Shown: positions 2,582 through 56,880 of the stretch, piece after piece
Position numbering within the stretch: the first letter of the stretch is position 1
Layout of the letters: every line of letters starts with the position of its first letter
NCBI GenBank assembly: GCA_030651475.1
Contig: JAUSEW010000027.1
Span: 109,614 to 173,613 of the forward strand
From: Candidatus Levyibacteriota bacterium
GTDB taxonomy: Bacteria > Patescibacteriota > Microgenomatia > Levybacterales > UBA12049
DNA length: 64,000 nucleotides
Reading direction: 5' to 3'
Program-made: the position numbers and the translations under genes
The notes under the pieces: generated by a model
The model's database searches: none
Seen by the model: only the letters and a program-made list of their open reading frames with translations
Told to the model about the DNA's origin: nothing

Positions 2582-3127
2582 ATGAGGTTACACAAAATAG
2601 AAGGTTTTGTTATTAAAAGAAACAATTTTAACGAAGCCGATAGAATTCTGACCGTATTTACCAAACAATCAGGTAAAGTTAAAATTAAAGCAGCAGGTGT
2701 CAGGCGAATTGCCAGCCGCAGATCTCCCCACGTAGAGCTTTTAAATTTATCTCTGCTTACTGTTTATCAAGGCAGGAATATTCCTACGCTTATAGAAGCA
2801 GAAACCATAGAAAGCTTTTCCGATATTAAAAAAAATCTTAAAAAAGTGGGTTTTGCCTATCATATTTGTGAATTGATAGATAAACTTTGCGCGGAGAATC
2901 AGGAGAATAGAGCAGTTTTTAATCTTCTGATGGACATTCTTACGAAACTTGCCAAAGAAGATAATATAGAAGCCACTATTGATAAATTTGAAATTAATTT
3001 GTTAAGTTTGTTGGGATTTTATACGTCTTCGCAATCCCTTATTCCTTCGTTTAATATATCGTCTTTCATAGAAAACATTACGGAAAGAAAACTTAAGAGC
3101 AGGCAATTCTTATCTAAATTTCTGTAA
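2582..3127 (+). CDS. recO: DNA repair protein RecO (short form)
   Basis: The N-terminal OB-fold pattern GFVIKRNNFNEADRILTVFTKQSGKVKIKAAGVRR matches the RecO N-terminus. Confidence 0.65.
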   Translation: MRLHKIEGFVIKRNNFNEADRILTVFTKQSGKVKIKAAGVRRIASRRSPHVELLNLSLLTVYQGRNIPTLIEAETIESFSDIKKNLKKVGFAYHICELIDKLCAENQENRAVFNLLMDILTKLAKEDNIEATIDKFEINLLSLLGFYTSSQSLIPSFNISSFIENITERKLKSRQFLSKFL

Positions 3128-3180
3128 ATTAATCTCCCCTTTTATCGTAACCTCAAAGCTCATAGTGAAATCTTAAACGG

Positions 3181-3196
3181 AAGGGATTATAATAAA
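3181..3196 (+). repeat. 16-bp direct repeat AAGGGATTATAATAAA, copy 1 (contains TATAAT)
   Basis: Identical 16-mer at 3181-3196 and 3576-3591. It contains a consensus -10 hexamer. Confidence 0.75.
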
Positions 3197-3220
3197 AAGA
3201 AATAAAAGCAACAATTCAAA

Positions 3221-3460
3221 ATGCAAAAACCAGCAAAAACAATCATTCTTTTCAATCAGCAAAAAATCCGCCGTTACTGGGATGATGAGAAGGAATTATG
3301 GTATTTCTCTGTTGTTGACGTTATTGCGGCTCTTACAGGTAGCGTTGACCCCTTTGCGTATTGGAGAAAGTTAAAAGAAAGACTTAAGGATGAGGGTGGA
3401 GATGAAACCGTGACAAAATGTCACGCTTTGAAAATGCAAGTAAGCGACGGAAAATTTTAA
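3221..3460 (+). CDS. Bro-N/DinD-like domain protein, truncated (79 aa); possible gene remnant
   Basis: The motif WYFSVVDVIAALTGS..YWRKLKERL matches the Bro-N type. The ORF is far shorter than full-length family members and is followed by about 220 bp of non-coding AT-rich DNA. Confidence 0.4.
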   Translation: MQKPAKTIILFNQQKIRRYWDDEKELWYFSVVDVIAALTGSVDPFAYWRKLKERLKDEGGDETVTKCHALKMQVSDGKF

Positions 3461-3575
3461 ATTCCCTGAAAGAAAAATCAAAAAACTGAAATAACATTAT
3501 AGTAGCTTTCCAAAAAGTGATTTTGGAACAAGCCAATTGCAAAAAAGGTTAAAGGGAAAGTGAAAGAAGAAGGGA

Positions 3576-3591
3576 AAGGGATTATAATAAA
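3576..3591 (+). repeat. 16-bp direct repeat AAGGGATTATAATAAA, copy 2; promoter-like element upstream of the methyltransferase operon
   Basis: Exact copy of the 3181-3196 sequence, about 90 nt upstream of the ATG at 3684. Confidence 0.75.
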
Positions 3592-3683
3592 TATTAATAT
3601 ACGCTATATTTTCTCTTAGGTTTTTATGTATAATTGCTATAGCTATAAAATAGTTAAGATAAGCATCCTGCTTATGTAATTTT

Positions 3684-4523
3684 ATGCAAAATATAATTCC
3701 AATAGGACAAAACAAGGTAATTAATGGATTAGAAGCTAAAAAACCATATTTCAAAAGTGATAATATTCTTATTTATAAAGACGATATTTTGAAAATTGCC
3801 TCTATTCCTGAAAATTCTGTAGATTTGATCGTAACTTCACCGCCTTATAATGTTAATATTCATTACAATTCCCATGTTGACAATTTGACTTATGAGGATT
3901 ATTTGGAATTTACCCAAAAATGGATTAAGAAATGTTTTGATTTAGCAAAAACTGAAGGACGGTTTTTGTTAAACATTCCGCTTGATAAAAATAAAGGCGG
4001 ACAAAAATCAGTTGGAGCAGACATTACACAAATCGCAAAAAATGTTGGCTGGAAATATCACTCAACAATTATTTGGAACGAAGGAAATATATCTCGTCGT
4101 ACTGCTTGGGGTTCATTTATGTCTGCTTCTGCTCCTTATGTTATTGCTCCGGTGGAATTGATTTTGGTTTTATACAAAGACAGCTGGAAGAAGACAGGTG
4201 CGAGTAGGAAAAATGACATTACAAAGCAGGAATTTATGGATTGGACAAACGGAATGTGGACATTTCCTGGCCAAAGTAGAAAAGGAGCAGGCGGTCATCC
4301 CGCACCATTTCCGATTGAATTACCAAGACGGTGTATAAAATTATTTAGCTTTGTCGGTGAAACGGTTTTGGATCCATTTCTAGGAAGCGGAACAACACTT
4401 ATCGCCTCATATCTACATAATAGAAAAGGAATAGGGATTGATATTGATAAAAATTATTGCGATTTGGCAATTAAGCGCTTACAAGTGGAAGCGAAAATAA
4501 ATCAATCAAGTTTGCTAAACTAA
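3684..4523 (+). CDS. DNA methyltransferase, beta-class N4-cytosine/N6-adenine type (SPPY motif IV ahead of the SAM-binding motif)
   Basis: LIVTSPPYNV is the catalytic motif. The SAM-binding region DPFLGSGTTLIAS lies near the C-terminus, which is the circularly permuted beta-class order. Confidence 0.85.
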   Translation: MQNIIPIGQNKVINGLEAKKPYFKSDNILIYKDDILKIASIPENSVDLIVTSPPYNVNIHYNSHVDNLTYEDYLEFTQKWIKKCFDLAKTEGRFLLNIPLDKNKGGQKSVGADITQIAKNVGWKYHSTIIWNEGNISRRTAWGSFMSASAPYVIAPVELILVLYKDSWKKTGASRKNDITKQEFMDWTNGMWTFPGQSRKGAGGHPAPFPIELPRRCIKLFSFVGETVLDPFLGSGTTLIASYLHNRKGIGIDIDKNYCDLAIKRLQVEAKINQSSLLN

Positions 4524-4528
4524 TAATT

Positions 4529-5125
4529 ATGAAGAAAGACAAAAACAACAATATAGTTCAGGAAGATCTTGTAATTGAGTTTTTTAAGAAAAACCCAAAT
4601 AGGGACATAAAACATCCCGAAGTGGTTGATTGGGTTGTATCAGCATATAGAGATAGAACGGGTAATGTGTTTCGTGATCCCGATAGGGCAATTCGTAAAT
4701 TGTCCCAAAGCGGATTTTTAATAAAAATAGCCAAAGGAATTTATAGATATGATCCCAAAAAGGCATATAAACGCGAACTTCAAGATTTTACTGTTGCTCA
4801 AAAACAGACAATTCTAGAAAGAGATGGTTACAAGTGCGTTATATGCGGAAGAGGTAAGAAAGATGGCGTTGATTTACACGTTGACCATATTAAGCCAAAA
4901 GATTTTGGCGGTGAAGCAACAATAGAAAACGGTCAAACTTTATGTTCGCAACATAATTTTATAAAAAAGAATTTGAAGCAAACAGAAACAGGCAAGAAGA
5001 TGTTTATTCGTCTTTATGAATTGGCAAAAAGTGAAAAGAACGAGGAATTAAAAAAGTTTTGCGCAGATGTTCTTGAAACCTACGAAAAACACAATATAAA
5101 TGGGCATATTATCTGGGAAAAATAA
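4529..5125 (+). CDS. HNH endonuclease (candidate restriction endonuclease partner of the methyltransferase)
   Basis: CVICGRGKKDGVDLHVDHIKPKDFGG....CSQHN is an HNH/zinc-finger nuclease motif. It starts 5 nt after the methyltransferase stop. Confidence 0.8.
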   Translation: MKKDKNNNIVQEDLVIEFFKKNPNRDIKHPEVVDWVVSAYRDRTGNVFRDPDRAIRKLSQSGFLIKIAKGIYRYDPKKAYKRELQDFTVAQKQTILERDGYKCVICGRGKKDGVDLHVDHIKPKDFGGEATIENGQTLCSQHNFIKKNLKQTETGKKMFIRLYELAKSEKNEELKKFCADVLETYEKHNINGHIIWEK

Positions 5126-5131
5126 TTACCT

Positions 5132-5518
5132 ATGAATCCTTCCAGAGAACATCAAGATTTAATTAAGGCCCTTAAAAACCATTTTATACAAAGATTGGGC
5201 TTTACTATATTAAGCGTTGATCTTCCTGAATCTTTAGATAAGCCTTTTCAAATTGGCAGACACAGTCCCGATATTATCGCTAAGGATCAATTTGGAATTA
5301 TACAAATTGGAGAGGCTAAGGTAGGAGACAACATATCTTCTCCTGAGTCTGAAGAACAATTTAAGGATTTCTCTAATCAAGTAATGAGGGGAACAAATGT
5401 TCCAGTTCCGTTGCATATAATAATTTTTCAAAAAGATTATAATACTTTATTAACAAAATTAACAACAGTTGGTCTAAGTCAAAAAATAGGTACGAAAATT
5501 GTAATATGGACAATATAG
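5132..5518 (+). CDS. Hypothetical small protein with a possible PD-(D/E)xK nuclease-like motif (SPD...GEAK)
   Basis: 128-aa ORF packed tightly between the HNH and PIN genes. HSPDIIAKDQFGIIQIGEAKVG fits a [S/P]D-x(n)-E-x-K pattern. The fold assignment is speculative. Confidence 0.45.
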   Translation: MNPSREHQDLIKALKNHFIQRLGFTILSVDLPESLDKPFQIGRHSPDIIAKDQFGIIQIGEAKVGDNISSPESEEQFKDFSNQVMRGTNVPVPLHIIIFQKDYNTLLTKLTTVGLSQKIGTKIVIWTI

Positions 5519-6126
5519 CTTCCGATCAAAAGGCTAAAATAGCTGAAACAAAAGAGGCAATAGAAGATAGGCCTGTTGTGAAGGAACCCCCTAGTGGTCC
5601 AAAAATACTCCTAGAGTCATCTTTTATTTTGGCAATACTGAATCAAGTGGATCCAAATAACAAAACTGCTAGTGCAATATTAGGTTTTCTTACGCCTTTT
5701 AACTGCAGATTTCATATTCCATTATTAGTTTCGGCTGAAGTTTTATCAAAAGTCGTACAAAGAGAAAAGGGCGTAGCGGCAGGAATAAAACTCTTTGAGT
5801 CTTTTATGAAAAGACTACCAGGGACACTTTTAACAGGAGCTACGCCCGATTTCGATGATATCGTCAGTCGATATAAAATGTTTGGCAGAAAAGACATAAA
5901 AAATTTACAAGGCAACGATTTCATAATAGTTACAGAAGGAATAATTTCTGGTTCTGTTATTTTAACTTGTGACCATGAAATGTATAAAAGAGTTAAGAAT
6001 TACCATGAAGACATATATTTTGTTGCCACAGACTCTGATAAATATGAGGATGATGCTGCTAAATTAATTAGTAGATTTCTCAAATTATCTGCTGCTCCAG
6101 TCGGTAGCAAACAGGGGGTTAAATAA
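5506..6126 (+). CDS. PIN-domain protein (VapC-like nuclease fold) with an N-terminal extension
   Basis: Four PIN-type acidic positions are recognisable: ILLESSFILA, LLVSAEVLSKV, PDFDDIVS and ILTCDHEMYK. It overlaps the upstream gene by 13 nt. Confidence 0.55.
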   Translation: MDNIASDQKAKIAETKEAIEDRPVVKEPPSGPKILLESSFILAILNQVDPNNKTASAILGFLTPFNCRFHIPLLVSAEVLSKVVQREKGVAAGIKLFESFMKRLPGTLLTGATPDFDDIVSRYKMFGRKDIKNLQGNDFIIVTEGIISGSVILTCDHEMYKRVKNYHEDIYFVATDSDKYEDDAAKLISRFLKLSAAPVGSKQGVK

Positions 6127-6151
6127 TAGATAGGGCGCATGCGTTACGTAT

Positions 6152-6178
6152 ACACCTCGAAGGTGTAAGGCTATTTTC
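6152..6178 (+). terminator. Possible intrinsic terminator (ACACCT-CGA-AGGTGT hairpin then TATTTTC)
   Basis: A 6-bp stem with a 3-nt loop sits 26 nt after the PIN gene stop. A U-rich tract follows after 5 nt. Weak. Confidence 0.3.
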
Positions 6179-9182: not shown

Positions 9183-10074
9183 CTTTCATACGAGCGTACT
9201 TTTAAAAGAAATTATAAGCGGTTTAAATGTTCAAAAAAACAAGAACTATATTGACGCAACAATTGGAGGGGGAGGACATAGCTTTGAGATTTTGAGATTG
9301 GGTGGAATTGTTTTGGGAATTGACTGTGATAAAGACGCGATAGATTATGTAGGGGAAAATTGGAAATTAGAAAGCAAAAGATGCGGGATCCCGGAGAAAA
9401 ATTTGATTTTGGTAAAAGGAAACTTTAGGGATTTGGATAAAATTGCACATTTAAATAATTTTGACAAAATTTCGGGAATAATTTTTGACTTGGGGGTAAG
9501 CAGCCACCAGTTGGGAGCTGCACAAAGAGGTTTTAGTTTTCAAAAAGAGGGCCCATTGGATATGCGGATGGACCAAGATCTAAATCTTACAGCTAAAGAT
9601 TTTATTTACGCATTAACGAAAGGAGAATTATATGAATTATTTACTAAGCTGGGTGAAGAAAGCAATGCTAGGGAGTTTTCTAACCTTATTGTTATGGCCC
9701 GTGGAGTAAAACCGATTGAAACGACAAGAGATTTGGCGATGATCTTTGAAAAAATTCCCTCAAGAAGAGTTTGGGGAATTAACAGAGCAACGAAAATATT
9801 TCAGGCGTTGCGTATAGCTGTAAACGATGAGCTAAACGCTATCAGAGAAGCATTGCCCAAAGCAGTAAATATGCTTGAGGACGAGGGAAGAATTTTGGTA
9901 ATTTCGTTTCATTCGCTGGAAGATAGAATTGTAAAAAGAGCTTTTCTAGAATTTGAAGAAAAAAATATGGGAAAAATAATTACAAAAAAACCTATAACTC
10001 CGACAAAAGAAGAATTAGGAATAAATAGAAGAAGCCGGAGTGCCAAACTTAGAATTTTCGAAAGGAATATATGA
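9175..10074 (+). CDS. rsmH: 16S rRNA (cytosine1402-N4)-methyltransferase RsmH (MraW)
   Basis: MDSFHTSVLLKEI...YIDATIGGGGHS and DLGVSSHQL are RsmH motifs. Confidence 0.9.
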   Translation: MDSFHTSVLLKEIISGLNVQKNKNYIDATIGGGGHSFEILRLGGIVLGIDCDKDAIDYVGENWKLESKRCGIPEKNLILVKGNFRDLDKIAHLNNFDKISGIIFDLGVSSHQLGAAQRGFSFQKEGPLDMRMDQDLNLTAKDFIYALTKGELYELFTKLGEESNAREFSNLIVMARGVKPIETTRDLAMIFEKIPSRRVWGINRATKIFQALRIAVNDELNAIREALPKAVNMLEDEGRILVISFHSLEDRIVKRAFLEFEEKNMGKIITKKPITPTKEELGINRRSRSAKLRIFERNI

Positions 10075-10355
10075 AAAGATTTAAATTACTTATAACATTT
10101 TTGGTTTTGGTAATAGTTTTCTTATCAATCGTTCAGGTTGTTGTATCCAACAGGCTGTCAACGACAGGTCCGCTTTTTAGCAAGATAGAAGAGGAAACGA
10201 ATTTCTATAAAAGAGAGAATTTACTTCTTTCGGAACGGCTTTTAACGTCGTCATCTCTTAATAATATAGCGTTAAAAGCAGAAGCTTTAGGCTTCATAGA
10301 AGGAAAAACCAAGTTTATCGTTACAGCATCATTGCCATTGGCTCTTAGACAATAA
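10071..10355 (+). CDS. ftsL: FtsL-like cell division protein (small single-TM protein)
   Basis: 94 aa with an N-terminal TM helix. The assignment is positional, between rsmH and ftsI. Confidence 0.45.
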   Translation: MKRFKLLITFLVLVIVFLSIVQVVVSNRLSTTGPLFSKIEEETNFYKRENLLLSERLLTSSSLNNIALKAEALGFIEGKTKFIVTASLPLALRQ

Positions 10356-12034
10356 TGACTTGGCGATACCGTTTTATTTTTGCAATTTTTCTTTTCTTCT
10401 TCGGTTTAATAATTATCAGGTTGTTTTACTGGCAAGTTGTCAAAGCTCAAGAATTATCTGTTCTTGCGGAATATCAGTACAGCGGTATAGTGAAAATGCT
10501 GCCTAATCGTGGAGAAATACAGACATCCGATGACTTTCCAATAGCTGCCAATAAAGTTTCCTATCTTGTGTTTGTAAATCCTAAAGCAATAAAGGATAAA
10601 AGGAATATTACAAACGAGATATCTCCAATAATTAACGTAGATAAAGCTTCCATAAGTGCGTTTCTATCTTTTGATAAAGTTTGGGTTTCTTTGAAATCGG
10701 GCATTGACGATAAAACAAAAAAAAGTATTGAGGCATTGAATTTTACCGGAATTGGATTTGAGCAGCAATCTTCCCGTTTTTATCCGGAAGCATCTTTAGC
10801 AGCTCACCTTCTTGGATTTGTTGGAAAAAACGAAGCAGGAGGAGATAAAGGATATTTTGGACTTGAAGGATATTATGACAGACTTTTAAGAGGTAAGGAA
10901 GGATATGCGGTTCAGATACAAGATGCTTTAGGAAGGCCGATTTTGTCCAGAATGTCAGGAAATTTAGTTAAGGTTGACGGAAGCAGCATCAAGCTTAGCA
11001 TAGATAGGTCAATACAGTTTCTGGCAGAGCAAAAATTAAAAGAAGGCATAGAGATGTATGGAGCAAGCGGGGGAATGGTAGGGATTATGGATCCAAAAAC
11101 AGGAGGAATGCTTGCCATGGCTTCTTTCCCATCGTTTACACCTCAAGATTATCAAAAGTATTCGGAGGATTTGTACAAAAACCCTTTTATTACAAATACC
11201 TATGAACCGGGATCTACTTTTAAGCCTATGGTTATGTCGGCAGCTTTAGAAGAGGGACTGGTTAAACCGGATACGAAGTGTCCAGCCTGCAATGGGCCGG
11301 TTTCGGTCGGAGGATATGATCTGCACACATGGAATGATAAGTATTATAAGGACACTAATATGATTGACGTAATAAAACACTCCGACAATACGGGAATGGT
11401 TTTCGTGGCGCAGAAACTTGGAGTAGATAAGATGATTGATTATCTTACGAAGTTTGGTATAGGAAGTCTGACAAATATTGACCTTCAGGGTGAGGTATCG
11501 CCGAGTCTTAAAGCAAGAAACGCTTGGTATGCGGTTGATCTTGCTACAACAGGGTTTGGGCAGGGTATATCGGTGACGCCTATAGGGCTTTTGGATGCTT
11601 TTTCAGCAATTGCCAACGGAGGTAAACGTGTGGAGCCTCACGTGGTATCTCAAGTTCAATCTCCTGATGGAAAAATATCTAAAATACTTCCAAAAACCGT
11701 AGATACCCCTATTTCGGGAAAAACTGCCAAAATTATGACGGAAATGTTAGTTAATGCAGTTAATAATGGGGAGGCTTCGTGGGCGCGTCTTAAGGGGTAT
11801 AGAATCGCCGGAAAAACAGGTACGGCTTCAATTCCTGTCAAAGGCCACTACGATCCTACGAAAACTATAACTTCATTTATTGGTTTCGCGCCGGCAAATG
11901 ATCCTAAATTTGTCATGTTGGTTATTTTGGATAAGCCGACAACATCCATTTACGGAGCGGAAACAGCAGCTCCGGTATTTTTCGATATCGCAAAAGACCT
12001 CTTACTCTATTACGGCGTTCCCCCCAGCGAATAG
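10355..12034 (+). CDS. ftsI: Peptidoglycan D,D-transpeptidase FtsI (class B penicillin-binding protein)
   Basis: N-terminal TM helix. SxxK is present as GSTFKP, SxN as HSDNTG and KTG as AGKTGTA. Confidence 0.85.
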   Translation: MTWRYRFIFAIFLFFFGLIIIRLFYWQVVKAQELSVLAEYQYSGIVKMLPNRGEIQTSDDFPIAANKVSYLVFVNPKAIKDKRNITNEISPIINVDKASISAFLSFDKVWVSLKSGIDDKTKKSIEALNFTGIGFEQQSSRFYPEASLAAHLLGFVGKNEAGGDKGYFGLEGYYDRLLRGKEGYAVQIQDALGRPILSRMSGNLVKVDGSSIKLSIDRSIQFLAEQKLKEGIEMYGASGGMVGIMDPKTGGMLAMASFPSFTPQDYQKYSEDLYKNPFITNTYEPGSTFKPMVMSAALEEGLVKPDTKCPACNGPVSVGGYDLHTWNDKYYKDTNMIDVIKHSDNTGMVFVAQKLGVDKMIDYLTKFGIGSLTNIDLQGEVSPSLKARNAWYAVDLATTGFGQGISVTPIGLLDAFSAIANGGKRVEPHVVSQVQSPDGKISKILPKTVDTPISGKTAKIMTEMLVNAVNNGEASWARLKGYRIAGKTGTASIPVKGHYDPTKTITSFIGFAPANDPKFVMLVILDKPTTSIYGAETAAPVFFDIAKDLLLYYGVPPSE

Positions 12035-12058
12035 TTTATGGTACAATAAGTTTATAAA

Positions 12059-12490
12059 ATGGCAGAAGCTCAAAGTCCTGATGGCCAAGCAAGTAGAGAA
12101 CCAGTAGAGAAATCTCTAGCGCATGTTTCGGATGCAGATATTATTGGAGAATTATCAAGAAGACTTCATGCCAATCCTCAATTAGATCCTACTGTCTTAA
12201 AAAGTTTCGATGAAGTTACGGCAAAAATAAAGGAAGGATTAAAACCAGGAGAGCCTAAAGCAGATTTAAAACCCACTACGGAGCCAGGCAACGTAGAGGC
12301 TCAAGCTACATCCGAGTCGGAAGGAAAAAAATGGGCAAAAATTATACGAGAAAAAGGCGCAGGTGGCCTGTTGCAGGGAAAGTTCAAAAACAGCTGGGGT
12401 TATTATGATGAAAGTGGTATTTTTCATGGCATTGAGCCAATCGGGCAGAGCAGTTCGGAAACAGCAATAGGCTACACAAGCGCCGGGTAG
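12059..12490 (+). CDS. Hypothetical low-complexity protein inserted in the dcw cluster
   Basis: ORF only. Acidic and Pro/Lys-rich, no TM helix. Confidence 0.35.
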   Translation: MAEAQSPDGQASREPVEKSLAHVSDADIIGELSRRLHANPQLDPTVLKSFDEVTAKIKEGLKPGEPKADLKPTTEPGNVEAQATSESEGKKWAKIIREKGAGGLLQGKFKNSWGYYDESGIFHGIEPIGQSSSETAIGYTSAG

Positions 12491-12628
12491 TTTGGGAAGC
12501 CTGAAATTCCCATAGGAAGCGAGTCGATAATAACATATTCAAGAGCTACTTTCTATAACGATACTGCAGGATCCCCACCTCAAGATACCTCTTCAAATTT
12601 TTTGGTCGTTGGGGATACAGGAAACAGT

Positions 12629-13063
12629 ATGGAAAACAGGAATCGTTTTAAGGGTTGGAAAACGTTTAGATATTTAACTTGGTACGACATTAGTCAAGCT
12701 GGAGGTCAAAATCCTCCCGATTTTAAATTTTTAGATTTTAATTTTACATTACCTCCAGAGGAATCTTCTCAATTTAGTGAGGCTATAAATAGGAGTCCTG
12801 ACTTAGTTGAAGATGCATTTCAGAATGTTTACCCTGGCCTTTTCGGAGAAAAAGGAATTAAGCGTCTTATCGTTAAGAAATTGACTATCACTGATAATAT
12901 AATTACCAAAAAAATTGAAGACCGCGAACGAAATGAGTTTTACAGAAAACAGGATCCGAAAGAAAATAGGCCAAAAGCCTACAATACAGTTCTAGAATCA
13001 GCTAGGACTCGGGAGGTAGATTTTTCGAAACCTGTTGGCGAGATTGTTCCGCAAACCCCATAG
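12629..13063 (+). CDS. Hypothetical protein (start taken at the ATG at 12629; the ORF track begins at TTG 12602)
   Basis: ORF only. Confidence 0.35.
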   Translation: MENRNRFKGWKTFRYLTWYDISQAGGQNPPDFKFLDFNFTLPPEESSQFSEAINRSPDLVEDAFQNVYPGLFGEKGIKRLIVKKLTITDNIITKKIEDRERNEFYRKQDPKENRPKAYNTVLESARTREVDFSKPVGEIVPQTP

Positions 13064-13113
13064 CGCATGCTTAAGGATTGGAGAAGAAGAGGAAGAAGCT
13101 GTATAATAGGTGA

Positions 13114-14301
13114 ATGTGGCAAGATTTAAAAAATATTTATCATCTCCTCGTAGCTTTTTTGGCTAATATTTATTATGGTTTCCCTTCCAGAAAATTCATT
13201 GTAATTGGAGTAACCGGAACAGACGGGAAAACCACTACAACAAGTCTAATTTATCATATACTTCGTACTGCCGGAAAAAAAGCTTTGATGATAAGTTCCG
13301 TAGGCGCAATTATTGACGGTAAAGAATATGATGTTGGTTTTCATGTCACAACTCCATCTTCTTTTGCCTTGCAGAAATTTTTAAAACAAGCTGCGGACGC
13401 AGGACTAAAGTATTTGGTTCTTGAAACAACTTCGCATGCTTTGGACCAATACAGGGTTTTTGGAATACATTTCAATGTTGGCGTTTTAACCAACATTACC
13501 CATGAACATTTGGATTACCATAAAACGTATGACGAATACGTTAAAACAAAGGCAAAACTTTTAAATATGAGTAAAGTTGCAATTGTAAATAGAGACGATA
13601 AGTCATTCGTTTTGCTAAGTTCAAAGTTCAAAGTTAAAAGTTCAAAGTTAAAAACGTATGGAATGGGTAAGAATGCAGATGTAAATCCGTATAATTTCCC
13701 TTTTTCAACAACTCTTTTTGGAGAGTTTAATAAATATAATATTTTGGCTGCGGTTTCCGTATGTAAAGCTTTAGATATTGAAAACAGCAAGATTAGAAAT
13801 GGTATAAAAAGTTTTAAACCCCCTAAGGGCAGGGAAGATATAGTTTATAAAAATAGCTTTTCGGTGATGATAGATTTTGCCCATACGCCTAATGCCTTTG
13901 AAGTGGTTTTGAAGGATTTGCGTGCCAATATCAAAGGCAGAATTATTCATGTTTTTGGTTCTGCAGGATCAAGAGATGCAACAAAACGTCCTTTAATGGG
14001 AAAAATATCTTCAAAATATGCGGATATACTTATTTTAACAGCAGAAGATCCAAGGAGAGAGCCAGTTGAAAAAATTATAAATGAGATTGCGTCAGGAATT
14101 ACAGACGCAAAGGAGGTTCTAAGAATTTATGATAGAAAAAAAGCAATTTTTGAAGCCATTAAAATGGCGAAAAAGGGAGATTTTGTTTTAGTAACAGGTA
14201 AAAGCCATGAAAAATCCATGAATTACGGACATAGTGAACAGCCGTGGGACGAATACGAAACAGTAAAGAGCGCTTTGGAAAATATTAAACATGAAAATTA
14301 A
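13114..14301 (+). CDS. murE: Mur ligase family protein, most likely MurE (UDP-MurNAc-L-Ala-D-Glu--diamino acid ligase); short form
   Basis: P-loop IGVTGTDGKTTTT. DFAHTPNAFE resembles the MurE DxAHTP motif. It sits ahead of murC in the cluster. Confidence 0.6.
   Translation: MWQDLKNIYHLLVAFLANIYYGFPSRKFIVIGVTGTDGKTTTTSLIYHILRTAGKKALMISSVGAIIDGKEYDVGFHVTTPSSFALQKFLKQAADAGLKYLVLETTSHALDQYRVFGIHFNVGVLTNITHEHLDYHKTYDEYVKTKAKLLNMSKVAIVNRDDKSFVLLSSKFKVKSSKLKTYGMGKNADVNPYNFPFSTTLFGEFNKYNILAAVSVCKALDIENSKIRNGIKSFKPPKGREDIVYKNSFSVMIDFAHTPNAFEVVLKDLRANIKGRIIHVFGSAGSRDATKRPLMGKISSKYADILILTAEDPRREPVEKIINEIASGITDAKEVLRIYDRKKAIFEAIKMAKKGDFVLVTGKSHEKSMNYGHSEQPWDEYETVKSALENIKHEN
13617..13651 (+). repeat. Five tandem copies of the heptamer AAGTT(C/A)A inside the murE-like coding sequence
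   Basis: AAGTTCA AAGTTCA AAGTTAA AAGTTCA AAGTTAA, in frame, encoding SSKFKVKSSKLK. Confidence 0.8.
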
Positions 14302-15709
14302 TTCAATTCATTTCGTCGGAATAAAAGGTGTCGGAATGACGCCTTTGGCAGTTATTGCAAAAGAGGCGGGTATGAAAGTTTCCGGTTCGGATATCGGAGA
14401 AACTTTTATTACGGATGAAATTTTAAAAAAGGCAAAAATTATTCCCCTTGTTGGTTTTTCTAAAAATCATATAGGAAATCCCGATCTCGTCATAACAACA
14501 GGCGCACATGGAGGATTCACTAACGTAGAGGTAATTGAAGCAAAGAAAAAAGAGATAAAAGTTATTACGCAGGGTGAAGCTGTAGGAATTTTCATGAAAG
14601 GTAAAATTTTCGGAAGAGAACAAATTGGCATTTCCGTGACAGGAACTCATGGTAAAACTACGACAACAGCTATAATTGCGACAATCCTTAAAGGATGCTA
14701 TCTTGATCCGTCATTCTTAATTGGTACCGGAAACGTCTTGTCGCTTGGTTCTTCCGGGCATTTCGGGCAAGGGAAATATTTCATTGCGGAAGCGGATGAG
14801 TATATGACAGAACCTGTTTTTGATAAAACCATAAAATTTTTATGGCAGTATCCCAAAATCGCAATTTTTACAAACATAGAATTTGATCATCCTGACGCAT
14901 ATAAATCTCTAGATGATGTAAAAAAGGCATTTCTTAAATTCGCCAATCAGTTATCAGAAGATGCAGTTTTAATTGCATGCCAAGATAACGAAAATGTTGC
15001 GGAAGTTTTGAAATCATATAGCGGCAGAAGAATTACTTATGGATTTTCCAAAGAAACTGATTTCGTAATTGAAAATGTTAAATCGAAAAATGGGAAATTA
15101 GAATTTGATTTAACAGGTAAAGGAAAAAGCTTAGGTAAATTTAAGCTTAATGTTTTTGGCAAGCATAACGCTCTAAATGCAACTGCTGCAATTATAGCAA
15201 GTCTCGAAGCAGGACTTCCAATAGGCGCAATAAAAAAAGCACTTTTGTTATTCGTTGGTACGAAAAGAAGATCGGAATATATTGGGAAACTTTCAACCGG
15301 AGCTATGGTTTTTGATGATTATGCCCATCACCCTACGGAAATTAGAAATACCTTATCCGCTTTCAGAAACTCGTTTCCACGCAATAAGATAGTTTGTATT
15401 TTCCAGCCGCATACTTATTCTAGAACAAAATCACTGTTCGAACAATTTATACACTCTTTTAACGATGCAGATATTGTCGTGTTAACCAATATCTATGCAT
15501 CGCTTAGAGAACAGCCTGATTCGACTGTTTCATCAGAGATGCTAGCAGAAAAGATGAGTAGATTTAAAAAAAATGTAATTTTTTTACCAAAACTTAGCGA
15601 TGTGGTAAAATATATATCTCAAAAGCAGTTTGGCAGAGATACTATAATTATCACAATGGGAGCGGGAGACGTGTATAGAATGAACGAAAGATTAAATATT
15701 AAAGATTGA
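14291..15709 (+). CDS. murC: UDP-N-acetylmuramate--L-alanine ligase MurC
   Basis: The N-terminus HFVGIKGVGMTPLAVIAKEAGMKVSGSD is MurC-type. P-loop VTGTHGKTTTT. Confidence 0.8.
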   Translation: MKINSIHFVGIKGVGMTPLAVIAKEAGMKVSGSDIGETFITDEILKKAKIIPLVGFSKNHIGNPDLVITTGAHGGFTNVEVIEAKKKEIKVITQGEAVGIFMKGKIFGREQIGISVTGTHGKTTTTAIIATILKGCYLDPSFLIGTGNVLSLGSSGHFGQGKYFIAEADEYMTEPVFDKTIKFLWQYPKIAIFTNIEFDHPDAYKSLDDVKKAFLKFANQLSEDAVLIACQDNENVAEVLKSYSGRRITYGFSKETDFVIENVKSKNGKLEFDLTGKGKSLGKFKLNVFGKHNALNATAAIIASLEAGLPIGAIKKALLLFVGTKRRSEYIGKLSTGAMVFDDYAHHPTEIRNTLSAFRNSFPRNKIVCIFQPHTYSRTKSLFEQFIHSFNDADIVVLTNIYASLREQPDSTVSSEMLAEKMSRFKKNVIFLPKLSDVVKYISQKQFGRDTIIITMGAGDVYRMNERLNIKD

Positions 15710-51179: not shown

Positions 51180-52835
51180 ATGGACAATAAATTAGTTTCT
51201 CTTAAAAATATTTGCTTGTCCCCTCTTTTCGTAGGAATAATATTTTTTTTATCACTACAGCTTCAATTGTTCAATTTAGATATAGGCTTTAGGGATGAAG
51301 GTTATTTGTTAAATAATGCCCAAAGAATAAATAATGGCGAAATGCCCTACGTAGATTTCTTCTTAGCTATTACACCGGGAACTTACTACATTCAAGCTTT
51401 TGTTATGAAAATATTTGGTAACTATATTATTACAGACAGAATTCTTTACATACTGTGCGTTATCTTAATTTTAATATTAAGTTCAAGGCTGTTTAAATTT
51501 ACATCATATTTAAACTACATATTTTTAATATCTTTAGGAATCATATATGCTGGTAAGCTATCGTTTGCATCCTACAACATTGAAGCTCTAGTTTTTATTA
51601 TAATTTCACTTTTACTATTTAATAAATTGATAAGTAATGATAGGGAACACAAATATTCATTTCTAATTGGATTAATGAACTCTATCGTTTTTATTTTCAA
51701 ACAAAGCTATGGCGGAGTATTCTTTCTTACGCTTTTAATTTTGATAACATTTTTTACAAAACGCAGATATTTGGCCAAAAACATTTTTTTATATTTATTA
51801 GGGGGCTTAATAGTGCCCGCTATTTTTTCATTATTCTTTTATTTAAACGGTTCCCTATATAAATTAGTTAATGCCATATTTTATTCTGCATTGTCTGTAA
51901 AAAACGATCGATTGCCATTTATTTTAACATCACTTTTATTTATTGCATTTTTTGCGTTTGTTTTTAATTTTGCTAAAAAGTTTTCTTTGAAAAGAATAAT
52001 TTTATCAGTATGTCTTTTTTTACTCTTTCTTGCCTTATATATCTTAATATCTCCAGGCAGAATGCATTACATATATGGTTTTTATAAAGATACCTCGGTG
52101 TATTATTTCTTGATTTTTCTTACAGCGCCAATAATTTTAATTAATTTATTTTTTAAATCAAATAGTAAGCAAGAAAGATATCTGGTGATTATATCTATCG
52201 AAGCGCTAGGCCTGTTTTTGGCAAGTGCTTTTTCAGGCAGAGATTATGCGACAGTGGTGGTAACGGCTCCTTTATATATACCGCTTTTTTTCTACGCTTT
52301 AGTAATTATATGCAAAAAATTTAGGTTACCTACAAATAACATCTTAATAACGTTATTATTAGCATTATTTATATTTCCATCCATCTCCTATCTAGCTAAG
52401 ACTTATGGAAAATTGTACGGAATAGGATATGATAAGGAAATTTATGTCAATTTGAATATAAAGCAAGCAAAATATATTAATATTCCGATAAGTCAAAAAA
52501 ATGATTTGGAACCATTAATTGATTACGTAAAAAAAGTATCGTTGAATAATGGTAAATTACTCTGTTTTCCATATTGTCCACTTCTAAATTTTTTGACTGA
52601 CAGGGATAACGCATCATATTTTAATTTTTTCTATAAATTTAGACCAGGCGATCAAAACAAGGTCATAGTGGATATTGGTAATAATAAAAATATAATTATT
52701 CTAATACAAAAAATGGGAGAAATAGAAAAAGAAGCGAATTACGAAGACGAAAAACTTAGTGTTTTAAAAACATTTATTCAAACGAATTACAAGCCAACTA
52801 AAACCACGCAGAATTTTTATATTTACAAAAATTAA
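51180..52835 (+). CDS. Polytopic membrane protein, GT-C-like (DE motif in the first loop)
   Basis: Many TM helices. RDEGY sits in the first extracytoplasmic loop. Confidence 0.5.
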   Translation: MDNKLVSLKNICLSPLFVGIIFFLSLQLQLFNLDIGFRDEGYLLNNAQRINNGEMPYVDFFLAITPGTYYIQAFVMKIFGNYIITDRILYILCVILILILSSRLFKFTSYLNYIFLISLGIIYAGKLSFASYNIEALVFIIISLLLFNKLISNDREHKYSFLIGLMNSIVFIFKQSYGGVFFLTLLILITFFTKRRYLAKNIFLYLLGGLIVPAIFSLFFYLNGSLYKLVNAIFYSALSVKNDRLPFILTSLLFIAFFAFVFNFAKKFSLKRIILSVCLFLLFLALYILISPGRMHYIYGFYKDTSVYYFLIFLTAPIILINLFFKSNSKQERYLVIISIEALGLFLASAFSGRDYATVVVTAPLYIPLFFYALVIICKKFRLPTNNILITLLLALFIFPSISYLAKTYGKLYGIGYDKEIYVNLNIKQAKYINIPISQKNDLEPLIDYVKKVSLNNGKLLCFPYCPLLNFLTDRDNASYFNFFYKFRPGDQNKVIVDIGNNKNIIILIQKMGEIEKEANYEDEKLSVLKTFIQTNYKPTKTTQNFYIYKN

Positions 52836-52841
52836 AGCAGT

Positions 52842-53243
52842 ATGAATAAAAAGAATCTTAACAAACTTTTTAATATTTATTTAGCTTTGTTGTCTTTAGT
52901 ATTGCTTAATAGTTTATTCCCTCATGCTCTGCCTACGCATAAAATAATTTATTTTTTTACGATATTAATAATTTTAGCGCCTATGTTTTTACTTCTGATT
53001 AACCTTCTGAATCTAAAAGGTTTTATAAAGTTTGTTATTTATTTGGGACTATTTGATCTAACCTTATTCTTATCTTTCAGATTCCTGAGGACATTATTTC
53101 CACTGCCGGAAATTTTGGGCAATAAAATAATAGGATATGCGCAGTATTTTGGCTATCCTATTTATTTCGACAATCTAGTTTTTATTATCCTATTTTTTAT
53201 TCCTGCTTTGATTTTCCTAATTTTATTTAATAAGAAAAGATGA
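52842..53243 (+). CDS. Small membrane protein (4 TM helices)
   Basis: ORF and hydrophobicity only. Confidence 0.4.
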   Translation: MNKKNLNKLFNIYLALLSLVLLNSLFPHALPTHKIIYFFTILIILAPMFLLLINLLNLKGFIKFVIYLGLFDLTLFLSFRFLRTLFPLPEILGNKIIGYAQYFGYPIYFDNLVFIILFFIPALIFLILFNKKR

Positions 53244-55231
53244 AATTGCCATTAACCATTAAAAAATTTAATTTGGATACAGTATTGGTTTTCGTGTTGA
53301 CCTTAGCTATTTCAATTAAGGATTTTTTGTTTTCTTGTGTCAGTTTCTCGCAATTCAGCTTTGATTATCAAATACCATTAAGTTGGTACTTTGCAGCTTC
53401 AAAAAATCTTTTGCCATACAGAGATATTTATTATCCCTATGGCATAATGTTTTATTTTAGAGATCATAATATTGTTTTAAGTTTGTTTTACTTAATTTTA
53501 ATGCCCGTTTTGTTTACAGGTATTTTTATTCTTTTTATGAAGCTATGGGGAAATAGGGTATTTGCATATATTTCTTTTATTTCACTTTTTATATTTATAG
53601 CGAAATTTTCAGGATGGGAAAATTTTAATAGATATGGAATTATTCTTCTCTTGACATTAATTTTTTCTTTTATATTTGCAAAAAAAGAATGTGTGGGAAA
53701 AAAGATGATATTTACGATGGGATTCATAACAGGTGTCATTTTCTCGCTCGTAAACGATCAGGGAATATATGTATTAGCGGTATTCATATTATTCCTAGCG
53801 ACTGATTCATTAATTAGACACAGTATAAGCAAATTGTTTAATTTAGGCTATTGTTTCCTATTGGTGAGACAAATGCTTGTTTTTTTTATCGGTTTAGTCT
53901 TAGGCATAAGTCCCTATGTGTATTTTTTGATTGCAAATAAAGCGGTTTTGGGTTTTATTAATTACCTAAAAAGCTTACTGGATTTTTCACTTTATGCAAA
54001 GACTCCGTTCATTCCTTTTTCTATGACATCGGATAATATATTTACATTTCTTATTTTATCATCAACAATTCTTCTTCTCGTAATTAAATTAGCATCATTT
54101 AGAAAAATTTCTTCACTAGCTTCTTATATGGAGATAGGTATTGTCTTTGTAATTCTTTTATTGGAGCAAAAGAGCTTTATTCGTTCCATAAGCACACAAA
54201 TTACTTTTATCAGTTTCTTATTATTTCTAATCCTATTTTATGAAATATGTTTAGTTCTAATCAGATGCGAGATAAAATATTACAAAATTGTAATTTATTA
54301 TATTTTACTTTGTTTAGTAATTTTATTTGCCTTGAGCTTACATCCAATGAGTTTCTATACAGAAATCAATTATGCGTATAAAGGAATAAGCATAGATAAG
54401 GAGTGTCTTAAGACAAATTTGGTTTTTTTATCTAGCAAAGATGAAAAGTATATTCTAGCAAAAGAAACAATAAGGAAAGATGCACGTTCAAGTACTAAAA
54501 TTTTTGATTATCTAAGCGATCCAATTTTTTATCCGTTATTTAATCAGAATCCTCCCTTTTATTTTACGATATTTGAGGCAACTCCCGAATATGCCCAAAA
54601 TAGGAATATAGAATATATAAAAAAGAATAAAATAAATTATGTCATTTACAATACGGATGTCGTAAGATTGCAGGATGGCGTTCCTGACTATGCAAGACAA
54701 AACAAATTATTTAAGTTTATCCTAAATAACTTTTCAGTTTATGATAAAGTTGATAATTTTATTATTTTCAAAAGAACAGCCAATGGCGTTTGGGAAAATG
54801 ACAATTTAGATAAAATTCCAAGCTTCAGGCAATACATTCTTAATGTTAATTTAGAATCTATTCCTAAGTCAGAGGGTATTTACAAAAGTAAAACAATTAA
54901 TAAATTGAAGCAAATAGCTTCCTCAAATTCCATAAATGAGATTAATAACTTTTTTACTAAAAATAATATCAGTTCGGATGATAAGATTTTGGTTCTAACG
55001 CCAGATTCGAATATAAGTACTAAAAAAACGGAAATAATAATAACTACAAACGATTTAGAGACAACGGCAATTATTTTTAATAAGTGTGATGCTAATGATC
55101 AATGCATAATTAATCTTTCAAATGTGCCTCTTTTTTATAAAAATAGAACTATAAAAAAGATAGAAATAGATAAAAATTTCAGCGGAAATATAAAGATATT
55201 GAATGGTAATTCGCCAAATAGTTTATGGTAA
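53240..55231 (+). CDS. Polytopic membrane protein with a C-terminal soluble domain
   Basis: ORF and hydrophobicity only. Confidence 0.45.
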   Translation: MKLPLTIKKFNLDTVLVFVLTLAISIKDFLFSCVSFSQFSFDYQIPLSWYFAASKNLLPYRDIYYPYGIMFYFRDHNIVLSLFYLILMPVLFTGIFILFMKLWGNRVFAYISFISLFIFIAKFSGWENFNRYGIILLLTLIFSFIFAKKECVGKKMIFTMGFITGVIFSLVNDQGIYVLAVFILFLATDSLIRHSISKLFNLGYCFLLVRQMLVFFIGLVLGISPYVYFLIANKAVLGFINYLKSLLDFSLYAKTPFIPFSMTSDNIFTFLILSSTILLLVIKLASFRKISSLASYMEIGIVFVILLLEQKSFIRSISTQITFISFLLFLILFYEICLVLIRCEIKYYKIVIYYILLCLVILFALSLHPMSFYTEINYAYKGISIDKECLKTNLVFLSSKDEKYILAKETIRKDARSSTKIFDYLSDPIFYPLFNQNPPFYFTIFEATPEYAQNRNIEYIKKNKINYVIYNTDVVRLQDGVPDYARQNKLFKFILNNFSVYDKVDNFIIFKRTANGVWENDNLDKIPSFRQYILNVNLESIPKSEGIYKSKTINKLKQIASSNSINEINNFFTKNNISSDDKILVLTPDSNISTKKTEIIITTNDLETTAIIFNKCDANDQCIINLSNVPLFYKNRTIKKIEIDKNFSGNIKILNGNSPNSLW

Positions 55232-56880
55232 TTTTAAAATTTAAAAAGAAGCTGTTAGATATTTACTTAAGTTTTACTAATTGGATATTGGAAAACAAAT
55301 TTCTCTTTTGTGTTTTAATAGTTTATGCAATATCAATGCTAACTGTTATCGATTGGGGCATACCGGGGATAGATCACCCATTTAATTATCAAATGGATGA
55401 ATGGCATCAACTTCAAGCGATAAAGACGACGTTTAAAGACTTTTCCGCAAATGTTCCGGGATCTGCTCATGGAACCATGTTGCATTTTATCCTATCAGGA
55501 CTATATCTTGCTCCATTTTATCTAGCTAAAATAATTAACCCTTTTACCATCAAGTCTTCCGTTGAATTCTTGCAGGTCCAGCAAAAACTTTTTGAAATTC
55601 TAAGATTAAATACTCTTATTTTTGGCTTGCTTTCTATATTTTTTATCGCAAAGGTTGCAAGGGAGCATCTCAAAATGAATCAAAATATAGTAATAATTTT
55701 GTTTGCGGTTACTCCTTTATGGATGTCTCTTAGCAATTACTTTAAGTACGATATTGCACTAGTATTTTGGATAATTATATCCTTGCATTATTTGTTAAAA
55801 TTCGGATCAAAACCGACGTTGCAAAATTATTTACTTGCCGGAGTTTTTTGCTCCCTGGCCGTTGCTACTAAAATTAGCGCTTTGCCACTACTTATTCCCT
55901 ATATTCTTTCCTTCTTCTGGTTTAACAAAAAATTGAAGTTAACGGGACTTTTAATTGGATTATTAATTTTCTTTATAATTTTCATTTTTTTGGGTATTCC
56001 GGATTTGATATTAGGGAAAGGTAATTGGAGTGAATTTCTATATTCAAATTTGACTTCCAGTTCAAGCGCATATGGCAATCTCCTGACAGGGTTTAATAGC
56101 TGGTGGCAATATATACTGCTCAAAATCTTTCCTATGGATTTTGGTTATGGATTTTTTATCATATTTGTAATTGGAATACTCTATTGGATAATTTTATTCC
56201 TGAAGAGGGTTTTCAATAAGAGACAATATTTATATAAAAATGAATTTTTTTTGCTATTTTGTTTTTTGTTATTTTTACTCAGTATAATTCCCTTAAAGCT
56301 TGGAGCTAATGGCAATAGACTGTTGGTTTTGTTGCCCTTTTTCGCTCTTCTTTCGGGTGCCTTTTTGCAAAGAATAAAAAACACTTTAATCAATTATAAA
56401 TCAATATTAACCACGCTATTCATGCTAATTTTTACAATCCAATTCTATCAGTCAATAATAACGGTTTACGTTAAATGGTTGCCGGATGTAAGACAGATAT
56501 CTTCTCAATGGATAGAAAAAAATATAGAAAAGGGTACATTAATCGGCATAGAAAATATTCCCATATATCAATTGTTACCAGATATTGTCGTTAAGGATTT
56601 TTATTCAAAAGACAGAAGTTATGACTATCAAATAATTGATGCATCAAGTAAGACTATCCCGTCACTAGTAATTGTGACAGGTAAAGAGCTTGATCTTAAT
56701 TATCTTAAAGTATCAGCTAAAAAACGATTACTAAGAAGATTGATGGAAGAAGAATATAAGCAGATAATGGAATTTTATCCGCCTAAAATTTTATACTTAT
56801 TCGCAGGAAATGAACTGAATTATTCTATTTCAGGTTTAGCTCCAATATCTACGATATCGATATTTAAAAAAGATAAATGA
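55225..56880 (+). CDS. ArnT/PMT-like GT-C glycosyltransferase
   Basis: The DE motif QMDEWHQL sits in the first loop. Many TM helices. Confidence 0.55.
   Translation: MVILKFKKKLLDIYLSFTNWILENKFLFCVLIVYAISMLTVIDWGIPGIDHPFNYQMDEWHQLQAIKTTFKDFSANVPGSAHGTMLHFILSGLYLAPFYLAKIINPFTIKSSVEFLQVQQKLFEILRLNTLIFGLLSIFFIAKVAREHLKMNQNIVIILFAVTPLWMSLSNYFKYDIALVFWIIISLHYLLKFGSKPTLQNYLLAGVFCSLAVATKISALPLLIPYILSFFWFNKKLKLTGLLIGLLIFFIIFIFLGIPDLILGKGNWSEFLYSNLTSSSSAYGNLLTGFNSWWQYILLKIFPMDFGYGFFIIFVIGILYWIILFLKRVFNKRQYLYKNEFFLLFCFLLFLLSIIPLKLGANGNRLLVLLPFFALLSGAFLQRIKNTLINYKSILTTLFMLIFTIQFYQSIITVYVKWLPDVRQISSQWIEKNIEKGTLIGIENIPIYQLLPDIVVKDFYSKDRSYDYQIIDASSKTIPSLVIVTGKELDLNYLKVSAKKRLLRRLMEEEYKQIMEFYPPKILYLFAGNELNYSISGLAPISTISIFKKDK

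Follow-up and report, generated by a model that had tools for sequence, protein, structure and literature searches.

A PD-(D/E)xK and PIN-domain gene pair as a candidate accessory module of restriction operons: the recO-glyS locus of a Candidatus Levybacteria genome

Do the four tightly packed genes found between recO and glyS in a Candidatus Levybacteria genome make up one defence system, or have they been assembled from separate parts? The genes lie in a 64,000-nt stretch of DNA (the window), positions 109,614 to 173,613 of JAUSEW010000027.1, a 252,992-bp contig of a genome bin belonging to the candidate phyla radiation (CPR). All are on the plus strand, and encode in order a DNA methyltransferase (MTase), an HNH endonuclease, a 128-aa protein and a 206-aa protein. 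The last two proteins are here denominated A and B, and their genes, as a pair, A-B. In a preliminary description of the window, the block was seen as a compact cassette in which a type II restriction-modification (RM) system is followed by an extra toxin or abortive-infection module. The open reading frames (ORFs) and spacings (5 nt, 6 nt and -13 nt) then reported were found to be exact on re-inspection of the window.

Composition of the cassette

DNA alignments separate the cassette into two halves. Window positions 3822-5109 match only the MTase-HNH genes of NC_014749.1 (66% over 1314 nt), the plasmid pCALNI01 of Calditerrivibrio nitroreducens, and positions 5135-6089 match only the A-B genes of L001, an unrelated metagenomic contig (72% over 962 nt). 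It is highly probable that the cassette is a mosaic of two two-gene modules, and that the folds of the encoded proteins are those assigned below.

The first module opens with the MTase gene (3684-4523, plus strand). The 279-aa product has the motif order of beta-class N6/N4 DNA methyltransferases, with the catalytic (D/S)PP(Y/F) motif found as SPPY at residues 52-55 and the AdoMet-binding motif FLGSGTT near the C-terminus, and matches both N6_N4_Mtase (PF01555, E 1.1e-44) and the PADLOC MTase_II profile (E 3e-96). After a gap of 5 nt (TAATT), the HNH gene (4529-5125, plus strand) encodes a 198-aa protein, which matches Pfam HNH (PF01844, E 1.8e-9) and, weakly, PADLOC REase_II (E 1.4e-5), and features an N-terminal region weakly resembling a winged helix. 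MTase and HNH are presumably the modification and restriction halves of a type II RM pair. Homologues of the two genes, with 60% and 57% identity at the protein level, respectively, are neighbours on pCALNI01, which is hosted by a species of another phylum and lacks A-B. The pair is hence conserved as a unit, which supports the RM assignment originally made; judging from motifs and neighbours, it appears to be an ordinary, mobile type II RM pair of conventional kind.

The second module starts 6 nt (TTACCT) downstream from the HNH gene. Gene A (5132-5518, plus strand) encodes a 128-aa protein that fits no curated family model: no match was found in Pfam, NCBIfam, PHROGs or PADLOC, and no family threshold was reached. 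The nearest sequence families (MmcB-like, AHJR-like and Hjc) are all below threshold; the best family match among 40 relatives of A is to MmcB-like proteins (E 5e-4, in 8 members), and comparison of the A profile to the PDB returned non-significant Hjc matches only (E 0.17). The fold is that of the PD-(D/E)xK core (alpha-beta-beta-beta-alpha-beta), and the catalytic D...(D/E)-x-K residues are in place. D47 and E61 are conserved in 40 of 40 sequences and K63 in 35, the remaining five having Glu at position 63; H7, P46, H95 and W126 are invariant along with D47 and E61. Fold and catalytic residues sustain the PD-(D/E)xK-like call made in the preliminary description, and A is best described as a stand-alone PD-(D/E)xK-fold mini-nuclease.

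A is a member of a large protein family. A profile derived from six homologues retrieved 120 clusters from a word-indexed database, all of about 128 aa, unannotated and devoid of precomputed Pfam domains. With a 40-sequence profile and an exhaustive search, 667 clusters at 50% identity were retrieved, 146 of which at E <= 1e-10. Almost all of them are stand-alone proteins. Fusions are rare (P0213, P0256, P0277, P0282, P0293): one has a SHOCT domain in front, and several, about 340 aa long, carry the A domain at the C-terminus, preceded by some 200 residues that include no known domain. Considered as functional hints, the fused forms were set aside, one being a SHOCT fusion and the others lacking known domains.

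Gene B (5506-6126, plus strand) shares its first 13 nt with the end of A and encodes a 206-aa VapC-like PIN-domain protein. By sequence, B gives only a sub-threshold match to Mut7-C (E 0.0095) and does not reach the gathering threshold of Pfam PF01850; 11 of 14 relatives weakly match Pfam PIN (best E 6.5e-4), and comparison of the B profile to the PDB gave nothing useful. The fold is a PIN fold of the VapC-like type, its closest PIN structures being RNase toxins. Four acidic residues (E37, E78, D138, D156) are invariant in the 14 aligned sequences; when B is aligned by hhalign to a distant Pfam-PIN homologue, an Asp corresponds to E37, and the other three positions are conserved. Taken together, the fold, the acidic residues and the weak PIN matches of relatives bear out the earlier assignment of this protein. 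The N-terminal 30 residues or so form a disordered tail that varies between homologues, with a predicted local distance difference test score (pLDDT) below 50 at residues 1-24.

Genomic contexts of the A-B pair

The contexts of A-B were drawn from about 20 distinct loci, and 18 distinct A-B loci, window included, were counted. A is followed by an adjacent B in every locus that has both ends on the contig. The 13-nt overlap is often kept, the codons for the C-terminus of A, IWT(L/I)*, being read in another frame as the start of B, MD(N/T)..., and such conservation of the start-stop overlap suggests translational coupling.

The A-B pair, about 1 kb long, is as a rule joined to restriction operons that are unrelated to one another, either at their 3' end or in their interior. 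A MTase is encoded in the same gene string in 13 of the 18 loci, and in most loci no more than 16 nt separate A from the gene that precedes it. The window, in which the pair follows MTase and HNH, is one arrangement; outside it, A-B is found beside at least eight unrelated restriction architectures, none of which features the HNH of the window. The pair is associated with an HTH (helix-turn-helix)-REase_II-MTase string (PADLOC REase_II, E 3e-78), with a MTase fragment and an NmeDI_C endonuclease, and with a MTase and a CfrBI-like endonuclease in two different architectures. A string made of MTase, NucS_C-like protein and Dam, or an MmeI-like fused RM enzyme, may also be located 3' of A-B. Five type III loci (L001, L004, L025, L027, L053) are organized as Mod-A-B-Res, with overlapping or near-abutting genes. 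Single loci feature GmrSD 1.6 kb upstream, a nearby nuclease of the PLD family, or a nearby weakly Mrr-like fusion protein. An IS200-like Y1 transposase is interposed between the GmrSD gene and A-B (L017, 2663-3004).

The type III loci bear on the nature of A. It was considered whether A could be the stand-in for a missing Res nuclease, and this was ruled out, because the Res proteins retain their own YPDF...ETKG nuclease motif. A is therefore an addition, not a replacement.

The pair shuffles among restriction systems. Between L026 and L055, A-B shows 91% identity across 1021 nt, and homology extends from 12 nt 5' of the A start codon to the last B codons; one of these near-identical pairs lies beside a MTase and CfrBI, the other beside an MmeI-like enzyme. 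Concatenated A and B proteins of L033 and L031 are 96% identical, and the cargo upstream differs. The nearest relative of the A-B pair of the window (69%) sits in a type III locus. All this speaks against a specific contact with any one restriction enzyme, and favours a generic link between A-B and restriction: co-expression, for instance, or a signal shared by the two, of which broken DNA would be an example. The chromosomal neighbours (pdxS/T, ligA, pilin genes, uppS and others) differ in every lineage. The distribution is patchy across phyla, as A-B was found in CPR bacteria and in a few other uncultivated lineages. No match to A or B was detected in phages, plasmids or viral contigs, so that nothing points to an origin from phages or plasmids.

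Some cassettes are bounded by GC-rich inverted repeats of 56-67 nt, which flank the whole HTH-MTase-CfrBI-A-B assembly in L033 (4911-4966 and 8594-8649) and L048 (2536-2595 and 6219-6285), being perfect within both, and which are found also in L049 and L050. In L031, more divergent copies (87-90% identity to the repeat of L033) bracket a smaller cassette with a different cargo (605-660 and 2659-2704). The repeats of the L033 and L031 cassettes suggest a carrier similar to transposons or to miniature inverted-repeat transposable elements (MITEs). They are absent from the window.

More distant A proteins are followed by a different partner. In a Jacksonbacteria bin, in a gammaproteobacterial bin and in several metagenomes, the PIN protein is replaced by a 330-aa ClpP-like protease (SDH_protease, PF01972). 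These modules were identified in L020 (3712-5088), L021 (7971-9364), L043 (7001-8373), L045 (7001-8376) and L057 (6001-6831), and the 13-nt overlap is kept in all loci with an intact protease but L020. The L020 pair is located directly 3' of a type ISP restriction gene; the others are preceded by a small HTH gene and by two small genes of unknown function. The proteins adjoining the protease-type module have no match in PADLOC or Pfam. Serine recombinase genes are found near the module in two loci (L043 and L044). At 2.5 kb 3' of the A-protease pair, L045 hosts a small defence island (10936-14390, the same in L046 and L047), in which a N6_N4 MTase and RE_BsaWI are followed by a Septu-like pair of AAA_15/AAA_21 ATPase and HNH protein. 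Since a protease may take the place of the PIN protein beside A, the partner enzyme can be exchanged, with A remaining constant.

Flanks of the cassette in the window

The four genes are preceded by a duplicated promoter-like repeat. Copy 1 spans 3164-3216 and copy 2 spans 3559-3611, both on the plus strand, with GTGAAA and TATAAT boxes spaced by 17 nt at 3165-3193 and 3560-3588, respectively; the exact 11-mer GGGATTATAAT has only two occurrences in the 64 kb, one in each copy. The repeat noted in the preliminary description thus exists, but does not flank the cassette, as both copies are upstream and bracket a 79-aa ORF alone. Copy 2 is likely the promoter of the four-gene operon. At the other end, a terminator-like hairpin followed by a T-run (6151-6176, plus strand; hairpin at 6151-6167) marks the end of the operon. 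We infer that the four genes form one operon, which would be transcribed from the promoter-like boxes of copy 2 (3560-3588) as far as the hairpin (6151-6167).

The 79-aa ORF (3221-3460, plus strand), located just 3' of copy 1, is the N-terminal remnant of a gene similar to Bro-N and to PADLOC PDC-S13. It matches positions 4-76 of the 286 of PDC-S13 (E 4.9e-29) and the N-terminal quarter only of phrog_15286, and shares homology with the N-terminus of a Bro-N-bearing protein of 287 aa encoded on L004 (E 4e-10); Pfam Bro-N (PF02498) gave no match at E <= 0.1. Because all matches are confined to the N-terminal quarter of longer proteins, the ORF is regarded as truncated. Nothing of the remaining 200 residues or so of the approximately 280-aa product is left downstream. 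The presence of a Bro-N gene remnant, originally proposed, is therefore borne out by relatives and not by the Pfam model itself. In L004 the full-length Bro-N protein is found with a PIF1-family helicase after the type III Mod-A-B-Res operon (9304-12070). Given the homology of the remnant to this protein, two unrelated loci combine A-B with a Bro-like gene.

The housekeeping flanks are as formerly annotated. RecO, upstream (2582-3127), matches both RecO_N and RecO_C, and a class II glycyl-tRNA synthetase (GlyRS) is encoded downstream. At 181 aa, RecO is a short protein; its match to RecO_C is limited to positions 3-66 of the 157 of the profile, and the C-terminal part of usual RecO seems to be absent. 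The program-called GlyRS ORF opens at TTG 6300 and ends at 7712; the alternative ATG at 6357 (MDQKNNK...) looks the more plausible start, and would leave an intergenic region of 230 nt after B. An Rfam scan of the block found no family. Neither recO nor glyS was present in the loci fetched, which were gathered for the A and B families. The inserted island proposed in the preliminary description finds no support in base composition, and this line was abandoned: the GC content is unremarkable (0.339 against a window mean of 0.351, standard deviation 0.031), and ranks 92nd among 305 windows of equal size. Within the 64 kb, no convincing repeats, direct or inverted, were found at the borders of the block. 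The lowest-GC stretch (0.27) is found at 51180-56880, where genes for large and very hydrophobic membrane proteins follow one another, next to those for a glycosyltransferase-like and a methyltransferase-like protein. This looks like a cell-envelope glycosylation cluster and not like foreign DNA.

Possible roles of A-B and relation to known systems

The block is probably a composite defence locus, in which a type II RM pair is co-transcribed with A-B as a second-line module. MTase and HNH would act as a conventional type II RM system. A-B, expressed with restriction, would provide a second line of immunity of the toxin-antitoxin or abortive-infection type, and the odds favour its being a restriction-associated defence or addiction module. 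The proposed effector is B, a putative VapC-type RNase, and A, the constant partner, would either hold it in check or set it off; plausibly, A may act on, or sense, DNA ends or DNA damage and not a particular restriction enzyme. In the sister lineage, a ClpP-like serine protease would be the effector. The specific roles, with A as sensor or restrainer and B as RNase effector, are proposed tentatively. Of the initial interpretation, the extra toxin or abortive-infection module made by the last two genes stands as the best current reading, with the roles of the proteins still conjectural; the unit of four genes does not, since it splits into two pairs.

Several observations weigh against this explanation. 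Neither A nor B matches the defence and toxin-antitoxin profiles known to Pfam, NCBIfam, PHROGs and PADLOC. A is compact, fully ordered and apparently catalytic, and differs from type II antitoxins in having neither a DNA-binding antitoxin domain nor a disordered tail. The first acidic residue of the PIN domain is Glu instead of Asp in all 14 aligned B proteins. No recognisable restriction gene is found in two of the 18 loci (L002 and L031), where the neighbours of the pair are unknown. Being mutually related, the five type III loci do not count as independent observations. A-B has in most loci no promoter of its own. Finally, the restriction partners are so diverse that a direct contact with the restriction enzyme, as for PrrC, is unlikely.

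Alternatively, A-B could be a selfish addiction cassette, made by a VapC-type toxin and an unusual partner, that hitchhikes on defence islands and stabilises them with no coupling to restriction. The VapC-like fold of B, the bicistronic organization with overlapping ORFs, typical of vapBC (PMC5499597), the rapid shuffling between contexts and the cassettes bounded by inverted repeats in L033 and L031 would all fit. We consider this unlikely, however, as the gene preceding B encodes an ordered PD-(D/E)xK enzyme instead of an antitoxin that binds DNA, and the pair, lacking its own promoter, usually lies inside restriction operons or is fused to them with gaps of 0-16 nt, in five loci just between mod and res. 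Such precise and repeated docking to restriction genes indicates more than co-residence in islands.

A-B could also be a DNA-processing helper of restriction, a complex of two nucleases which either degrades restricted DNA or repairs or limits the damage caused by self-restriction, in the way RecBCD works after restriction, or the PIN-fold pro-CRISPR factor PcrIIC1 boosts Cas9. The hypothesis is improbable. The PIN structures closest to B are RNase toxins, the replacement of the PIN protein by a protease in the sister lineage ill fits DNA degradation, and A supplies no missing nuclease to type III enzymes, because their Res subunits keep the YPDF...ETKG domain.

The very tight spacing of the genes, and the single promoter-like and terminator-like frame in the window, could suggest one integrated and dedicated system of four components, as was implicit in the preliminary description. 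This has been largely refuted and retains a very low probability: MTase-HNH does without A-B on pCALNI01, A-B does without the HNH of the window in the eight or more unrelated restriction architectures mentioned above, and the point at which DNA homology is interrupted coincides exactly with the boundary of the modules. That A and B serve in housekeeping, for repair or RNA processing, and lie here by chance, as the recO and glyS neighbours and a base composition that is not foreign might suggest, is hardly credible in view of their patchy distribution across phyla, of neighbourhoods that differ in every lineage, of near-identical pairs set in different contexts, and of the consistent linkage to restriction genes.

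Returning to A-B as a second-line module expressed with restriction, the candidate novelty resides in this half of the cassette, an accessory or toxin-like module coupled to restriction and a good candidate for a novel anti-phage accessory, the RM half being ordinary. No description of the pair was found by full-text searching of the literature. A wider scenario, more speculative, can be envisaged: A, with a swappable partner that is either a PIN nuclease or a ClpP-like protease, could represent a widespread and so far unrecognised family of immune modules that dock onto any type of restriction system. In such a family, A would be a minimal PD-(D/E)xK sensor of the products, or of the failure, of restriction, and would switch the effector on. 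If so, a two-enzyme cassette of about 1 kb, with an exchangeable PIN or protease effector, would amount to a new kind of restriction-coupled immunity. It would also provide a generic second layer on top of restriction to bacteria with small genomes that rarely have CRISPR; CPR bacteria rarely encode CRISPR-Cas (PMC6509639). In any case, two unannotated protein families have now received a structural and contextual assignment, and the cassette is small enough to be directly synthesized and tested.

The relation to known systems can be summarized as follows. The first module shares with type II RM systems of the HNH and beta-class N4/N6 MTase kind the adjacency of N6_N4_Mtase (SPPY...FxGxG order) and HNH genes, and differs in the weak match of its HNH protein to REase_II. 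With VapBC, A-B shares the VapC fold of B, in which all four canonical positions are acidic, and a small upstream gene that overlaps the start of B. In contrast, B is paired with a PD-(D/E)xK enzyme of 128 aa, and not with an antitoxin of the AbrB, RHH (ribbon-helix-helix), HTH or PHD type, no upstream protein provides a DNA-binding domain and a disordered tail wrapping the toxin, A-B has no promoter of its own, B features an extra disordered N-terminal tail, and its first acidic residue is Glu. The ordered PD-(D/E)xK fold of the upstream protein excludes A-B from the canonical VapBC modules.

Among the anticodon nucleases linked to restriction loci, PrrC, nested in a type IC locus, comes into action upon inhibition of restriction, and RloC does so in response to DNA breaks (PMC12707154). 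A-B resembles them in that a putative RNase gene is nested in, or fused to, restriction operons, as in the Mod-A-B-Res loci, where it lies between mod and res, and at the 3' end of type II operons; by analogy, the same logic of a second line of defence may apply (PMC12707154). A-B differs in being made by two proteins, with partners of many unrelated types, which makes direct masking by one enzyme unlikely. The ABC-ATPase N-domain and the HEPN-like nuclease C-domain of PrrC and RloC are both missing, no match having been found in PADLOC, Pfam or NCBIfam, and membership in this group therefore fails.

In a survey of PIN-like proteins, linkage to type I restriction only was reported, with none beside type II (PMC5499597). 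The associations described here with type II, type III and other systems extend the known range, as only type I had been seen in that survey. PcrIIC1, the PIN-fold accessory of type II-C Cas9, has a defined binding site on one specific helix of Cas9, whereas A-B has no fixed partner enzyme. Defence candidates nested in larger defence operons have been sought according to a principle of guilt by embedding (Payne et al., bioRxiv 10.1101/2024.01.29.577857). HEC-02 (ATPase and NERD) and HEC-03 (ATPase and PIN) are similar to A-B, as their effectors, either PD-(D/E)xK or VapC-like PIN proteins, are nested in the same manner. The constant partner is in HEC-02 and HEC-03 an ABC ATPase; in A-B, which has no ATPase, the constant element is the PD-(D/E)xK protein itself.

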